From: Gammaproteobacteria bacterium
GTDB taxonomy: Bacteria > Pseudomonadota > Gammaproteobacteria > UBA4575
Direction of reading: 5' to 3'
DNA length: 64,000 nt
Assembly: GCA_965222615.1 (NCBI GenBank)
Contig: CBDCUI010000009.1
Coordinates: 896,001 to 960,000 of the forward strand
A program made the translations under genes and the position numbers. Shown piece by piece: positions 28,025 to 32,801 of the stretch (its first letter is position 1; the number at the start of each line of letters is the position of its first letter). The notes beneath the pieces are model-generated. The model made no database searches. It had not been told where the DNA came from and was given only the letters and a program-made list of their open reading frames with translations.

Positions 28025-29152
28025 ATGTCTGCCACACTTGATCTCGTCAAACAATTAATTCAGAAAGCATCGGTAACACCCGATGATGCTGGGTGCCAGT
28101 CGTTAATTAGTGAATATTTACAATTTTCGGGATTCGAAGCTGAAGTCATGCAGTTTGAAAATGTTACCAATCTTTGGTTACGACGTGGTGATGAAGCTCC
28201 GCTATTTGTTTTCGCAGGACATACCGATGTGGTACCTACAGGACCGTTAGAACAATGGCATTCCGATCCTTTTATACCTGAGATTCGTGATCATCAAATA
28301 TTTGGACGTGGTGCAGCCGATATGAAGTCCAGCATCGCAGCCATGGCCGTCGCCTGCAAAAATTTTGTGGCATCAAATCCTGATCATAAAGGATCTATTG
28401 CTTTTCTACTTACCAGCGATGAAGAAGGCCCCGCGGTGAATGGCACTGTCAAAGTTATTGAAGAGTTGCAAGCACGACATGAAAACATCGATATGTGTAT
28501 TGTTGGTGAACCCAGCAGCACTAATACACTTGGCGATACTCTTAAAATAGGACGGCGTGGCTCACTCTCTGCAACACTTTTTGTCTATGGCGTGCAAGGT
28601 CATGTTGCTTACCCTCATTTAGCAAAAAACCCTGTGCATGAATTTGCACCTGCTCTTACAGAATTAACCTCGCTTCAATGGGATGCCGGTAATGAGCATT
28701 TCCCTGCCACAACTTTTCAAATCTCAAATATCAATGCAGGCGCCGGTGCAAGTAACATTATTCCCGGAATGTTACAAATTGATTTTAATTTACGTTTTTC
28801 TACAGAGATTTCTGTAGATGAAATTAAAACTAAAATCCTAAGTATATTGGATAAACACAGTTTAGATTACGAGATTGAATGGCATCTTTCTGGAAATCCT
28901 TTTTATTGTGAACCAGGCGAATTAACTCAAGCCTGTGTACAAGCCATTCAAGAAACGATGAATATTAAACCGGAACTTTCAACAGGTGGCGGTACTTCAG
29001 ATGGGAGATTTATTGCACCGACTGGCGCACAGGTAGTAGAACTCGGGCCAGTCAATGAAAGCATTCATAAGGTAAATGAACATATTGAAGTTGAAGCATT
29101 GGATCAATTAACAGAGATTTATCAGCGAGTTTTGGAGAGGTTGTTGGTTTGA
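28025..29152 (+). CDS. dapE: Succinyl-diaminopimelate desuccinylase
   Basis: GHTDVVP, GRGAADMK, SDEEG, GGGTSDGRF. Confidence 0.97.
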   Translation: MSATLDLVKQLIQKASVTPDDAGCQSLISEYLQFSGFEAEVMQFENVTNLWLRRGDEAPLFVFAGHTDVVPTGPLEQWHSDPFIPEIRDHQIFGRGAADMKSSIAAMAVACKNFVASNPDHKGSIAFLLTSDEEGPAVNGTVKVIEELQARHENIDMCIVGEPSSTNTLGDTLKIGRRGSLSATLFVYGVQGHVAYPHLAKNPVHEFAPALTELTSLQWDAGNEHFPATTFQISNINAGAGASNIIPGMLQIDFNLRFSTEISVDEIKTKILSILDKHSLDYEIEWHLSGNPFYCEPGELTQACVQAIQETMNIKPELSTGGGTSDGRFIAPTGAQVVELGPVNESIHKVNEHIEVEALDQLTEIYQRVLERLLV

Positions 29153-29157
29153 TTTTT

Positions 29158-29187
29158 GGTGTTTGGTAGCGGGCTAAAGCAGTCATT
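29158..29187. repeat. 30-bp palindrome copy R1 (right arm intact, left arm degenerate)
   Basis: aagcagtcatt (29177-29187) identical to 30990-31000; contains the stop codon of ORF 29183-29482. Confidence 0.5.
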
Positions 29188-29482
29188 CGATATTGTAAAT
29201 AAAAGTAAACATTGATCCTAAAATAATAATTACTGCAAATAATGTTATTGGTAACCTTGCAAGTCGTTTGTACAAAATACCTCTATCAGTAAGAGCTGAA
29301 TTTGGCGCTAAAAATAAGAGGCCAAAGTTAAATTGGCCTTTGCATCGTTCATTTAAATAAGCTCTTTCAGTTTCATTTATAATGTGGCCACTTATTTTTC
29401 TATCGAAATAGCCATGAGCAAACAAGAAAATTGCTGAAATTGATATTAGGAATAATGTCATTACTAGTAACAATTTAATCAA
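29183..29482 (-). CDS. Small hypothetical membrane protein
   Basis: 99-aa ORF with hydrophobic N- and C-terminal segments; no recognisable family. Confidence 0.55.
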   Translation of the reverse strand: MIKLLLVMTLFLISISAIFLFAHGYFDRKISGHIINETERAYLNERCKGQFNFGLLFLAPNSALTDRGILYKRLARLPITLFAVIIILGSMFTFIYNIE

Positions 29483-29499
29483 TAACTATCAAACGATTA

Positions 29500-29529
29500 T
29501 ATGTCAACTTTGGATCGTTACCGGACATT
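29500..29529. repeat. 30-bp palindrome copy R2
   Basis: tatgtcaact-ttggatcgtt-accggacatt; spacer 8/10 identical to that of R5. Confidence 0.6.
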
Positions 29530-29572
29530 TTAGGCTTGTAGTGTATTGGTTCCAACCTAGTCAGTCCTAAAT

Positions 29573-29601
29573 ATTGTCAGTTTCGGTCAGTAGCGGTCAT
29601 C
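29573..29601. repeat. 30-bp palindrome copy R3 (29 bp)
   Basis: attgtcagtt-tcggtcagt-agcggtcatc. Confidence 0.5.
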
Positions 29602-29637
29602 TCAAAACTGATTAATATTATAAATTTCACCGCGCCC

Positions 29638-30015
29638 CTACTTTTCAAACATCAGCATTGAACCTACTAGAGCAATAGCAAAAAGCACAGTTAACGGTTC
29701 TGCTGAAATAAATTTTTTCTTTGCTGCGTCATTAATATTCATAACTTTTAGCCGTAGTATATTCCACCCACTCTCAAATATAGAGATGGCTAGCAATATA
29801 GTGCCTAATATGACGCCATATCCAGTATCTAGCTGAAACATGAATACAACAAATATGACTGCACTGAGACCAATTAAAAACTTAGAATTAACGCTTTTAT
29901 ATAAATCTTTTTCTGACTCATTCAATGAACGTTGAGTCTTCATATTCCAAGATATTTGAATGATGACAATAAAAATTGATGCTACTACACCAATAATCCA
30001 ATAGCTATTATTCAT
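29638..30015 (-). CDS. Hypothetical membrane protein (about 4 TM segments)
   Basis: 125-aa hydrophobic ORF, ATG start. Confidence 0.6.
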   Translation of the reverse strand: MNNSYWIIGVVASIFIVIIQISWNMKTQRSLNESEKDLYKSVNSKFLIGLSAVIFVVFMFQLDTGYGVILGTILLAISIFESGWNILRLKVMNINDAAKKKFISAEPLTVLFAIALVGSMLMFEK

Positions 30016-30029
30016 ATAGCTTGTGTATT

Positions 30030-30059
30030 AATGTGCGCTTTCGTTTGTTAGCGCCCATT
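30030..30059. repeat. 30-bp palindrome copy R4
   Basis: aatgtgcgct-ttcgtttgtt-agcgcccatt, arms 9/10 complementary; contains the stop codon of ORF 30048-30578. Confidence 0.65.
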
Positions 30060-30578
30060 TTTATTTTTCTGTAATTCTTTTAATTTCTCTTCGGCAATCT
30101 TCAGCTCTTTATCTAATAGCTCAACTCGATCATGGTACTCCTGCGTTAATCGAGCAGCTGGACCAATGAAAACATGATTTGTACCAAGTCTTTCTCCTGG
30201 TAATGGAATTTTACCTTTTTCTAAAGCTTCTTTTTTCTTAGCTACTTCTTGTCTTGCTGCTCTAATTTCAGCAGCGCGTTTTTCTCTGTCACTAATTCTC
30301 TGTTTAATTCGATTAGATACACGATCATGCTTTTGTATGACCTCATCTTGCTTTGCTTTAATTTGCAGAGGGGAAGTCGTGTTAGCTTCTTGTAACTCAA
30401 TTTCTTCAATGTTATTTAAATGATTGGGCGGGTTAGATGTGTAAACGACTTTGCCATTTTCATCGATATATTTATAAACCTTGGTATCAGCATTAACTAC
30501 TGAAAGGATAATAAATAAAAGCGTAAAACAAAAAAACGCAACTATTCGACAACTATTTTGCAAGTGTTTTAAGCCCAT
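30048..30578 (-). CDS. Exported DUF4124-domain protein with coiled coil
   Basis: Signal-like N-terminus then VYKYIDENGKVVYTSNPP. Confidence 0.8.
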   Translation of the reverse strand: MGLKHLQNSCRIVAFFCFTLLFIILSVVNADTKVYKYIDENGKVVYTSNPPNHLNNIEEIELQEANTTSPLQIKAKQDEVIQKHDRVSNRIKQRISDREKRAAEIRAARQEVAKKKEALEKGKIPLPGERLGTNHVFIGPAARLTQEYHDRVELLDKELKIAEEKLKELQKNKNGR

Positions 30579-30718
30579 ATTTTAATTACATAATAATTAT
30601 TGTCAGGCAAATGAGACTCAAGTCATAAAAATAATCTTTAAACTCAAATACATTAGTAATTATAGGGATATGTAAATAGCCTCTAATGCTTTTCTAATTT
30701 TATTTAGATTATTATTTT

Positions 30719-31000
30719 AATGTCTGCTTTGGGTTGTGGTCTCAATAGGTCGATGCAACACTTTGAAATAGAGTGAAAAAAGGTTGCAAAAGCTAAGAGA
30801 AATGCAATTACATCAACATCTTAAGAGTAGATCAATAAAAGATGGCTCGAAGCAAGTAATAATGCAGTATTTAATGTAACCGGTTCATCCAAAAACAACT
30901 CAACACTAAATGGTCATCCGTTTGAGTCAACCTCTTTATTACTAAAAGTTTAGCAAGGTGTTGCATTGACCGATTGAATCGGCAGTCGTAAGCAGTCATT
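30719..31000. repeat. 30-bp palindrome copy R5, split by a MITE
   Basis: aatgtctgctttgggt (30719-30734) + gtcgtaagcagtcatt (30985-31000) rejoin to aatgtctgct-ttgggtcgta-agcagtcatt. Confidence 0.7.
30735..30984. mobile_element. 250-bp non-autonomous IS30-family derivative (MITE)
   Basis: 27-bp TIRs tgtggtctcaataggtcgatgcaacac / gtgttgcattgaccgattgaatcggca (21/27), 2-bp GT duplication, TG...CA ends, no transposase ORF. Confidence 0.7.
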
Positions 31001-31065
31001 TTGAACTCTCGTTTTGATATTCCCAACCTGTTCTTCATTTTAACCTGCCTGACTTTAATTTGTTG

Positions 31066-31109
31066 CATCGTCCCTGATGGACCTCATATTCGCACATCCA
31101 TGTGCTCAC
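31066..31109 (-). repeat. GGA-loop hairpin repeat (family B)
   Basis: Minus strand gtgagcacatggatgtgcgaat...catcagggacgatg; homologous to 46243-46307. Confidence 0.5.
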
Positions 31110-31123
31110 TACCTTGCGCTCAT

Positions 31124-31891
31124 TTATTGCCAGGCTTCTAAAAACTCTGCAAAATGTTTTTCACTAGATTCAGATAAATACTCTTTCACCTGCTGACATT
31201 TATTATCATATTCTTTTTCATAGAGCTTTCCACGTATTAATTCAAAGCGCAAATAAATTAGATAAGTATTTAATACATCCGTTTCGCAGTAATTACGTAT
31301 CGCTTTTAAATCACCATTTAAAAAGGTTTCGCAAACCTTACTGCCATCCATACCTAGTTTGCCCGGAAACCCTAACATGGTCGCAACGTGATCAAGTTTT
31401 GCCGAAGCACGCATTTGATAACCTGCTAAAACATCCATTAAATCGATATGCCGCCAATGGAAACGCCCTAAATAGTTGTTATATCGAAAGCTTGTATCTT
31501 CATCCCCAATTTGCCAGTAATGATGTGCACTTACTCCATGCAATAAAGATCGAAAATGCATTACTGGCAAATCAAAACCACCACCATTCCAGGAAACAAT
31601 AGTGGGATTGTATTTTTCTAATCCATCATAAAAACGTTGTAACAGTTCTTTTTCAGATGATTTTTCTGCGCCTAATGACCAAACCTTAAATGAATCATGT
31701 GTACTAAGAACTGCGGATATTGCCACTATGCGTTGTAAATAATGCGGCATAAATTCACTACCGGTTTGCTGATTCCGCAAATGTTCAATGGCCTTGATGA
31801 CCTCTTTATCCGGCAAACCATCTAAATCATAAATCTTTTTCCCTGACTCCACATCAGGTACGGTTTCAATATCAAATACGAGTACATTCAT
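31124..31891 (-). CDS. PolB-like 3'-5' exonuclease family protein
   Basis: FDIETVPD, SWNGGGFDLP, HIDLMD, YCETDV (DEDDy); start moved to MNVLV just after cysM. Confidence 0.88.
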   Translation of the reverse strand: MNVLVFDIETVPDVESGKKIYDLDGLPDKEVIKAIEHLRNQQTGSEFMPHYLQRIVAISAVLSTHDSFKVWSLGAEKSSEKELLQRFYDGLEKYNPTIVSWNGGGFDLPVMHFRSLLHGVSAHHYWQIGDEDTSFRYNNYLGRFHWRHIDLMDVLAGYQMRASAKLDHVATMLGFPGKLGMDGSKVCETFLNGDLKAIRNYCETDVLNTYLIYLRFELIRGKLYEKEYDNKCQQVKEYLSESSEKHFAEFLEAWQ

Positions 31892-31892
31892 T

Positions 31893-32801
31893 TTATTCTT
31901 CTGCAAACAATCCCGTTGACAGATACCGATCCCCGCGATCACATATAATGACGACAATCACTGCATCCTGTACTTGTTTTGACAGCTCCAAAGCAGCCAC
32001 AACTGCGCCTCCTGAAGATATACCACAAAAGATCCCTTCTTCTTTACCGAGCCGTCGCATCATGTCTTCGGCTTCCTGCTGGGTCACTTCCATGACTTGA
32101 TCAACCGCCTTCGCATCAAATATTTTCGGAATATATTCTTCAGGCCATTTACGTATGCCTGGAATCTTAGAGCCCTCTGATGGCTCCACACCAATGATTT
32201 GAATCTTGGGATTTACTTCCTTTAAATATTTCGATGTACCCATTATCGTACCCGTGGTTCCCATTGAACTTACAAAGTGAGTAATCTTTCCATCCGTGTC
32301 TCGCCAAATTTCAGGACCGGTTGTTTGATAATGTGCTAGTGGGTTATCCGGATTGGCAAATTGATCTAACACTTTACCTTTACCGTCTGCTTGCATTTGT
32401 AGAGCCAAATCACGTGCACCTTCCATGCCTTCTTCGGCAGTAACTAATATTAATTCTGCACCAAAGGCTTGCATGGATTGACGACGTTCAAGGCTCATAT
32501 TTTCTGGCATAATTAGTTTTAAGTTAAAGCCTTTCATTGCCGCTACCATTGCGAGTGCAATTCCGGTGTTACCACTAGTCGCTTCGATTAAATTATCTCC
32601 AGGTTTAATATCACCGCGTTTCTCTGCCTCAACAATCATGCTTAAAGCCGGTCGATCTTTCACCGATCCCGCAGGATTATTGCCTTCTAACTTTCCCAAT
32701 ACCAAATTAGAAGTTTTTCCTGGAAGACGTTGCAAGCGCACAAGCGGTGTATTGCCAACGAATTTTTCAATAGTTGGGACCTCTATAGTAGGAACACTCA
32801 T
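31893..32801 (-). CDS. cysM: Cysteine synthase B
   Basis: KLEGNNPAGSVKDR, ATSGNTG, CDRGDRYLS. Confidence 0.96.
   Translation of the reverse strand: MSVPTIEVPTIEKFVGNTPLVRLQRLPGKTSNLVLGKLEGNNPAGSVKDRPALSMIVEAEKRGDIKPGDNLIEATSGNTGIALAMVAAMKGFNLKLIMPENMSLERRQSMQAFGAELILVTAEEGMEGARDLALQMQADGKGKVLDQFANPDNPLAHYQTTGPEIWRDTDGKITHFVSSMGTTGTIMGTSKYLKEVNPKIQIIGVEPSEGSKIPGIRKWPEEYIPKIFDAKAVDQVMEVTQQEAEDMMRRLGKEEGIFCGISSGGAVVAALELSKQVQDAVIVVIICDRGDRYLSTGLFAEE

Follow-up and report, generated by a model that had tools for sequence, protein, structure and literature searches.

Results

The interval between dapE and the exonuclease gene

We analysed a window of 64,000 nucleotides (C9:896001–960000) from a gammaproteobacterial genome, hereafter the source genome or G000 (3.10 Mb in 9 contigs, 39% G+C), concentrating on the interval between dapE and an exonuclease gene, where three small genes alternate with short palindromic repeats. 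A first-pass annotation had described five such repeats, R1 to R5, as copies of one palindrome and had read the interval as an integron-like array in which genes are captured or shuffled at recombinase core sites. Comparison across 41 genomes of the family (40 besides G000) leads us to interpret the palindromes as variously decayed copies of a dispersed inverted repeat, the unit, which is 30 bp long and has the form AATGTCCGCT-N10-AGCGGACATT.

The left flank of the interval is dapE, encoding succinyl-diaminopimelate desuccinylase (28025..29152, plus strand; TIGR01246, 556.5 bits with a cut-off of 361.8), and the right flank is a gene for a PolB-like 3′–5′ exonuclease (31124..31957, minus strand; PF10108, E = 3.4e-91). 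Orthologues of both were present in 5/5 relatives searched; the orthologous exonucleases start with MNVLVFDIET, and the true start of the window gene is probably near 31891. Between the flanking genes lie, as the first-pass annotation had reported, three small open reading frames (ORFs), all on the minus strand. ORF-A (29183..29482, 99 aa) and ORF-B (29638..30015, 125 aa) are orphans: neither has a homologue in the 40 other family genomes, ORF-A gave no Pfam or NCBIfam match and ORF-B gave no Pfam match above the cut-off. The translation of ORF-B is hydrophobic, and from its hydrophobic stretches we judge the product to be a putative membrane protein. ORF-C (30048..30578, 176 aa) matches DUF4124 (PF13511, E = 1.1e-8), begins with a hydrophobic stretch that we read as a putative signal peptide, and has homologues in 2 of the 40 other genomes (G007 and G040). 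In all three genomes a unit lies upstream of this gene and another at its stop, and the three neighbourhoods are different. We also confirmed that the stop codons at 29183 and 30048 fall inside R1 and R4, and that the starts at 29482 and 30015 are 18 and 15 bp, respectively, from a unit.

The two flanking genes are about 8 bp apart in G002; the number of genes between them is one in G007, three each in G006 and G000, about six in G001 and seven in G014. The interval genes of these five relatives have none in common with those of G000. The interval between dapE and the exonuclease gene is a hotspot of variable gene content. Contigs of four sequencing runs aligned on 28400–31900 as short fragments only, broken at the repeats; X3 gave one loose end each at 29105 and at 29217, too thin to be read as strain variation in this region.

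Repeats R1 to R4

Judged from G000 alone, the five repeats had the look of an over-reading. The consensus proposed in the first-pass annotation, AATGTCYGCT-N10-AGCRGWCATT, matched only R4 in the window when up to three mismatches were allowed; the number of complementary positions among the ten of each arm was five for R1, six for R2, five for R3, nine for R4 and nine for the ends of R5; and searches of the G000 genome with R1 to R4 by blastn-short returned chance-level matches only. That assessment was overturned by profiles built from the relatives. A covariance model (CM) of the unit, trained on 25 units that included R2 and R3, gave three significant matches only in the 64 kb: these two training members, R2 at 37.1 bits and R3 at 31.8 bits, and R4, on which it had not been trained, at 25.5 bits (E = 2.2e-5). 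The same three repeats were hit by an HMM profile. Membership in one family was thus borne out for R2, R3 and R4, and for R5 as described below, while R1 was not significant.

R2 and R3 had been listed as separate sites. The sequence at 29499–29605 matches several places in G007 and G014, two genomes of another genus, in a DNA search that covered 31 genomes; the window element, of about 102 bp, aligns over its full length with the copies in these genomes and fits a consensus of 24 such elements. To judge from this alignment, R2 and R3 together form a single composite (29500..29601, plus strand), with R2 as its L unit (29500–29529), then a linker (29530–29571), and R3 as its R unit (29572–29601). 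The CM recognises R4 (30030..30059, plus strand) as one unit standing alone; it is degenerate and overlaps ORF-C at the stop codon. At the DNA level, G000 and G007 become homologous from 30031 onwards, immediately inside R4, a position matched in G007 by the R unit beside the ORF-C homologue.

Of R1 (29158..29187, plus strand), no more than the right arm and some of the loop can be recognised, and it gave no CM match at E ≤ 10 and an nhmmer E-value of 2.8. By chance alone, a right arm like that of R1 should turn up about 0.5 times per window, and the genome holds 53 such arms where 23.8 are expected. Since a weak unit match (E = 0.029) is present in G006 4 bp past the dapE stop (L012:1876–1903), R1 may be the remnant of a decayed unit.

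Form and spread of the unit family

The unit consists of 10-bp arms flanking a conserved 10-nt centre, with the consensus TATGTCCGCTTTGGGTCGTTAGCGGTCATT; it starts with (A/T)ATGTC and in some copies with ACGTC. There are two subtypes, L with the loop TTGGGTCGTT and R with the loop TTCGGCCAAT, which are mostly joined as an L-linker-R composite of about 100–115 bp. In eight aligned composites the two 30-bp units stand on either side of a conserved linker measuring about 45 bp; the same arrangement was seen in 24 composites from the loci examined, in which the linker motif TCCAACC is nearly invariant.

We counted units at E ≤ 0.01 among 150 scored candidates per genome, such that the counts are lower bounds. 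There are at least 19 units in G000, at least 35 in G001 (same genus as G000), at least 111 in G007 and at least 108 in G014, and in G006 all 150 scored candidates, out of about 1250, matched as units. Units are present in 24 of the 41 family genomes; we call unit-rich the 13 genomes with at least 40. The small-genome genera have none or very few, genus g3 having two or three matches each in 2 of its 10 genomes. Beyond the family, the exact pattern AATGTCYGCT-N10-AGCRGACATT occurs in at least 117 stretches of a species-representative collection, where about 2–4 would be expected at equal base frequencies. The matches listed are mostly from Alphaproteobacteria (Pseudolabrys, Hyphomicrobiales, Sphingomonadales and Rhizobium), and others are from a Coxiellaceae and a Thiotrichales metagenome-assembled genome, Pantoea and Dyella. 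The loop sequences are conserved in all the exact matches examined, and the density reaches 9–11 units per 8 kb at some of these loci.

Most units in the loci examined are extragenic, and a few overlap ORF ends or fall inside ORFs called by a simple finder. The reverse strand of a unit translates to MSANDPKRT or MSANGQKRT and the other strand to ...LTQSGH (L064, L061, L156 and L159). As many called ORFs begin or end with such unit-encoded peptides, units seed spurious or extended ORFs.

Two further observations concern the distribution of units and their neighbours. Of the unit matches listed for the G006 chromosome (C1), plus-strand ones predominate at 0.13–0.43 Mb and from 2.16 Mb onwards, minus-strand ones at 0.6–2.02 Mb, with local exceptions; this replichore-like pattern would fit a strand-specific mechanism. 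A separate dispersed repeat of about 60 bp, 'family c', often adjoins units or linkers, with 13 matches in G000, 13 in G007, 30 in G014 and 8 in G011; its G000 sites include 31048–31111 of the window, C7:373237, C9:664098 and C8:163701.

R5 and its insertion

The split copy that the first-pass annotation recognised as R5 is indeed a divided unit; what had been overlooked is the nature of the insertion that divides it. The left half (30719..30734, plus strand) comprises the left arm and half the loop of an L unit and ends in a GT target duplication, and the right half (30985..31000, plus strand) comprises the second GT, the other half of the loop and the right arm. Between them lies a 250-bp core (30735..30984, plus strand), with inverted-repeat ends that resemble, at about 80%, the ends of a 1.28-kb element of the IS30 family of insertion sequences (ISs). 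R5 is followed by a linker-like stretch and then by the 'family c' repeat (31001..31111, plus strand), and this composite recurs with a unit right half at C9:675176–675333 and C9:787348–787502.

The 282 bp at 30719–31000 have four further sites in G000 at 95–97% identity, plus one partial copy. Across these copies the constant part is the 250-bp core alone, with five full copies in G000, and each core lies between two 16-nt halves of a unit, which differs from copy to copy and may face either way. A perfect 2-bp duplication is present in 4/5 copies. When the core was removed in silico, the emptied sites scored 19–28 bits as units in 4/5 cases (25.3 bits for R5) and 3.8 bits in the fifth. Two 1.28-kb partner elements encode a protein with HTH_38 and rve domains, as in the IS30 family, and both lie in unit loops. 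The insert is thus short, non-coding and multicopy, with inverted-repeat ends, a target duplication and a partner with like ends, the properties of a miniature inverted-repeat transposable element (MITE). On these sequence features, we conclude that R5 is an L unit split at the centre of its loop by an IS30-derived MITE.

Units as targets of IS110 and IS30 elements

Units also receive elements of the IS110 family, a property that the first-pass annotation had overlooked for IS110 and IS30 alike. The IS110 DEDD domain is matched 11 times in G000, mainly by two types of element, whose proteins carry DEDD_Tnp_IS110 and Transposase_20 domains. Type B (344 aa) is inserted at ...CAATAGC^GGTCAT of R units in 6/6 copies. 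Type A (347 aa) is inserted at ...CGACCCAA^AGCGGACA of L units; its junction is fixed in 5/5 copies, with a clear left half unit in three of the five and the right arm in all of them. Each type occupies one fixed position in the repeat, with neither terminal inverted repeats nor a target duplication. In the composite at C9:~256.7 kb, an IS30 element lies in the L unit and IS110 type B in the R unit, and both the MITE and the IS30 element are positioned at the centre of the unit loop. The units are sequence-specific landing sites for two IS110 types, one per subtype, and for an IS30 element with its MITE.

A 78%-identical subtype of IS110 type B lies in an R-type unit at C9:960810–962227, about 0.8 kb beyond the window. 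Nests of type A, type B and IS30-family elements, all in units, occur at C9:252.5–262.8 kb (L033) and C7:812.5–822.9 kb (L034), the latter reaching the contig end. Such nests may account for the small number of intact units left in G000.

Units between small genes in relatives

We then counted by hand the gaps between neighbouring genes that hold a unit, on ORFs from a simple in-house ORF finder. In the array at L016 of G007, seven co-oriented small genes have a unit or composite in 6/6 gaps, and at L159 of the same genome, adjoining a putative rpoD identified from its N-terminus, units occupy 10/11 gaps. The dapE–exonuclease interval of G014 has units in 5/7 gaps, and the window has significant units in 3/4. 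The position of the units relative to the genes is regular: an array gene stops in or at the end of an R unit, the reverse complement of which contains TGA, and the next array gene starts 11–24 bp past an L unit. Whole arrays in the relatives and the variable content of the interval agree with the earlier expectation that the repeats flank strain-variable small genes. Random placement relative to gene ends, fixed synteny of the small genes and scoring of the sites as attC or terminators, which the first-pass annotation had named as speaking against its reading, were not what we found.

Units also occur among small genes elsewhere in G000. A phage-like or integrative island at C9:76–87 kb, which ends in a gene for a 353-aa tyrosine integrase, contains a short array of small plus-strand genes, one for an RRM RNA-binding protein and one for a CBS-domain protein among them, interspersed with five units.

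Placement at stop codons and 11–24 bp ahead of the next start could be purely regulatory, with the units acting only as expression signals, that is, as hairpins at mRNA ends, terminators or operators. The window linker carries, besides the conserved TCCAACC, a promoter-like TTGGAA-17-TAAAAT (29527..29555, minus strand), found by a consensus scan and directed through the L unit to ORF-A. A promoter reading of the linker is weak, since only 1/5 composites of L016 pass the same scan. The terminator scan gave two matches in the window, both inside ORFs and none at the units, and L016 gave no match; in neither place are the units followed by a T-run. Rfam returned no match at E ≤ 1 for 28500–31500 or at E ≤ 0.1 for the IS-rich loci, and the arms showed no significant covariation (see Discussion). 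Regulation would also leave the targeting by ISs and the recurrence of gene segments unexplained, and we regard a role as expression signals alone as highly improbable.

Recurring unit-to-unit segments

In G006, two sites that are 42 kb apart carry the same 496-bp segment at 100% identity: a unit, a gene of 117 aa and a second unit. Beyond the outer unit edges all similarity is lost, and neither site shows a target duplication. An 884-bp segment with two genes is 100% identical at two sites of this genome and 84% identical at a third, in each case from unit to unit. Elsewhere in G006, two adjacent segments share one degenerate unit, and each is copied at another site at 99.6–100% identity with the shared unit included. 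Between genomes, a CBS-domain gene together with both its units is common to G000 and G006 at 82% identity, and the flanks are unrelated. The earlier proposal of a gene-capture or shuffling array is supported in one part, as unit-bounded segments recur in other contexts; the other part, a recombinase that co-varies with the units, was not found, as described next.

Integron and recombinase genes

If the 10-10-10 unit were the core site of a recombinase encoded elsewhere, crossover in the spacer would move cassettes as in an integron. The packing of the genes is of the cassette type and co-oriented in the window, G007 and G014; neighbouring modules share one unit, one module junction lies at an arm/loop border, and the module ends lack a target duplication. 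We therefore searched for candidate enzymes. The window has no match to the tyrosine recombinase profile PF00589, as had been noted, and there are six matches elsewhere in G000. The sole integron integrase (IntI) of this genome (C9:397309–398292, 327 aa; TIGR02249, 490.9 bits) is about 530 kb from the interval of the window. Upstream of it, at L165 (C9:380001–398292), lies an array of about 25 minus-strand ORFs separated by attC-like repeats terminating in GTTAGG or GTTAT, including two 69-mers of 99% identity, and the unit profile had no match in this integron array. On inspection, units do not have the attC layout, an imperfect hairpin of 57–141 bp with RYYYAAC...GTTRRRY boxes: the unit measures 30 bp, the composite is two direct units, not one long hairpin, and no boxes were seen at the window sites, in agreement with the first-pass annotation that they are not attC. 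The window array is not an integron.

Nor does an enzyme follow the units from genome to genome. IntI exceeds the cut-off in 5/41 genomes (G000, G002, G037, G041 and G044) and in one of the 13 unit-rich genomes (G002); G037 has IntI and no units. Y1_Tnp (PF01797), the domain of REP-associated tyrosine transposases (RAYTs; REP, repetitive extragenic palindromic sequence), was found in 7/41 genomes and in 2/13 unit-rich ones, with G006 and G007 among those without it. Because neither gene co-varies with unit abundance, IntI and RAYT are unlikely to be the movers. IS110 genes occur in 0/13 unit-rich genomes and the Rpn nuclease (PF04754) in 0/41 genomes; the IS91-type Y2_Tnp also gave 0/41, a result that is uninformative because the search control was silent too. 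No units lie near the single Y1_Tnp gene of G000 (RAYT-like, 230 aa; C8:548432–550158, L017), which directly follows a 328-aa ORF of IS30-like look.

We found no evidence that units are core sites of a tyrosine recombinase. The IntI of G000 owns an array with repeats of a different kind, and the spacers of tyrosine recombinase core sites are usually 6–8 nt long, which the 10-nt centre of the unit exceeds. The recurring segments, moreover, keep both units entire, which a crossover in the spacer with a different target unit would not. We consider movement by an integron-like recombinase improbable.

Discussion

The units are a cassette-like variant of repeats of the REP type and of neisserial intergenic mosaic elements (NIMEs). 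With moderate confidence, we favour the reading that a dispersed unit resembling REPs, bacterial interspersed mosaic elements (BIMEs) and NIMEs fences small accessory genes into modules at hotspots and serves in addition as an IS target. We base it on the membership of the window repeats in a family, the occupancy of gene gaps, the variable gene content, the specificity of the insertions and the recurrence of unit-bounded segments. Under this reading, modules would be copied as whole unit-to-unit segments by an activity acting in trans, and arrays of modules would accumulate at variable hotspots between core genes, of which the dapE–exonuclease interval would be an example.

The alternative that has to be weighed most closely is that the units are ordinary selfish or structural REP-like repeats in non-essential gaps, most often downstream of small monocistronic genes, the cassette look being a by-product of their spread and the modules arising through occasional homologous recombination. 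Several results speak for it and weigh against modules fenced and copied by the units. Copy numbers in relatives are very high, at least 150 in G006, such that dense occupancy could equal ordinary REP-like spread between monocistronic genes, and G000 itself is unit-poor, with about 19. The unit-rich stretches of G006 have genes on both strands, which is unlike a cassette array. One pair of the 884-bp segment has its left junction inside the unit, at the arm/loop border, and not at its edge, so the events were not uniform. No duplicated module was found in G000, all near-identical copies being in G006. No module-mobilising enzyme was found with the IntI, Y1/RAYT, IS110 and Rpn profiles over the 41 genomes, and arm covariation did not exceed that of shuffled controls (80.7% vs 79.6% paired). 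The gene calls, finally, stem from a simple ORF finder, and the unit counts rest on 150 scored candidates per genome. REPs of the CGTC type are described as lacking a transposase and as forming large clusters in Neisseria and Wolbachia (PMC3733652).

Other results are difficult to reconcile with REP-like spread and occasional exchange. The copies are identical out to the far edge of either unit, degenerate units are copied too, and the two units that flank a segment, for example an L unit and a degenerate R unit, can be too short and too dissimilar for efficient exchange by RecA; each of these points favours copying over homologous exchange. Also, a run of eight larger metabolic genes in G006 (L154:11414–19165) is without units. 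We therefore think it somewhat unlikely that REP-like spread with occasional homologous recombination explains the arrays, and prefer the fencing of accessory genes into modules.

A wider version of the preferred reading would make units the ends of an integrase-independent cassette system that is widespread in Proteobacteria, in which an unrecognised trans-acting enzyme could copy any segment between two units to new sites and so build the arrays at hotspots, with IS110 and IS30 elements having evolved to home to these ends. We regard this as possible and put it forward only tentatively.

If the modules truly move, they would represent a further route, beside integrons and dif modules, by which small accessory genes are assembled and shuffled, one that needs no linked recombinase and is present in both Gamma- and Alphaproteobacteria. 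The convergence of three unrelated transposable elements on one 30-bp target could aid the study of site choice by IS30 elements and by the bridge-RNA-guided IS110 elements. For annotation, the units explain many small ORFs and spurious peptides at repeats, and they flag variable hotspots like the dapE–exonuclease interval.

Comparison with known systems

In the literature on REP-flanked gene cassettes and mobile insertion cassettes that we searched, no description of the unit or of unit-fenced genes was found. Two unit-specific 14–15-mers had no literature match, and other unit-derived words gave unrelated primers among the matches listed. The nearest parallels to the units as repeats are the neisserial dRS3/NIME arrays and the REP/BIME repeats, including the transposase-free CGTC families.

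The neisserial repeat dRS3 is described as a 20-bp sequence of 6-N8-6 form that bounds variable segments in arrays differing between genomes, and it has been proposed to serve either as the target of a specific recombinase or as a substrate on which homologous exchange acts; dRS3 is also the integration site of a phage, which brings its own transposase or recombinase (PMC1797815). Units share with this system the bounding of variable segments by short inverted repeats in arrays that differ between genomes. They differ in being 30 bp long with a 10-N10-10 layout, as the dRS3 sequence ATTCCC-N8-GGGAAT is not matched by the unit consensus TATGTCCGCTTTGGGTCGTTAGCGGTCATT, and in bounding whole genes or a 45-bp linker, whereas NIMEs bound non-coding RS elements. 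The unit family also spans Gamma- and Alphaproteobacteria, whereas NIME arrays, according to the account in PMC1797815, were not seen outside Neisseria.

dRS3 has been filed under the CGTC-1 REPs (Di Nocera 2013, PMC3733652). As in REPs and BIMEs, the unit is an imperfect palindrome of 20–40 bp that is extragenic, present in a hundred or more copies in relatives (few in G000), frequently arranged in doublets with a spacer and frequently targeted by the IS110 family. Unlike REPs with their RAYTs, units have no association with a RAYT gene, and their doublets consist of two different subtypes in direct order, joined by a conserved linker; the units moreover bracket genes. The REP families described by Di Nocera, GTAG and CGTC, have a stem of 8–9 bp and a loop of 4–5 nt, and the CGTC head often becomes TGTC (PMC3733652). 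Compared by description, the unit has heads of (A/T)ATGTC or ACGTC, arms of 10 bp and a centre of 10 nt.

QMITE2, a GTAG REP of Coxiella burnetii, is described as a REP-like element found at ORF 3′ ends and in intergenic regions, as a hot spot for IS1111 and as adding a promoter element, with relatives of 83–100 nt in Bradyrhizobium, Rhodobacter and Rhodopseudomonas (Wachter 2018, PMC5896051). Units and QMITE2 are alike in being targets of the IS110 family and in their taxonomic spread, a comparison by description, not sequence. The account of QMITE2 on which we draw does not describe it as bracketing gene modules, and genus g3 has units in 2/10 genomes only.

Integrons and clusters of attC sites lacking an integron integrase (CALINs) resemble the unit arrays in their small, packed and mostly co-oriented genes, each followed by a repeat, and in arrays that vary between genomes. 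Elements of the IS1111 type are also known to target attC sites. The unit arrays differ in having neither an adjacent IntI nor RYYYAAC/GTTRRRY boxes, and IntI does not co-vary with them.

For gene modules set between short sites, a fourth system has to be considered. The pdif sites of Acinetobacter are dif-like 11-6-11 sites for XerC/XerD, alternate in orientation and lie on plasmids; units differ in being 10-10-10, chromosomal and in one orientation. Acinetobacter pdif modules are described as small genes set between short palindromes and moved from replicon to replicon with no recombinase gene linked to them, and pdif sites are likewise targeted by insertion sequences (PMC6449649, PMC13141974, PMC10132070). 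The Acinetobacter dif modules are the closest analogue of the gene modules that the units enclose.

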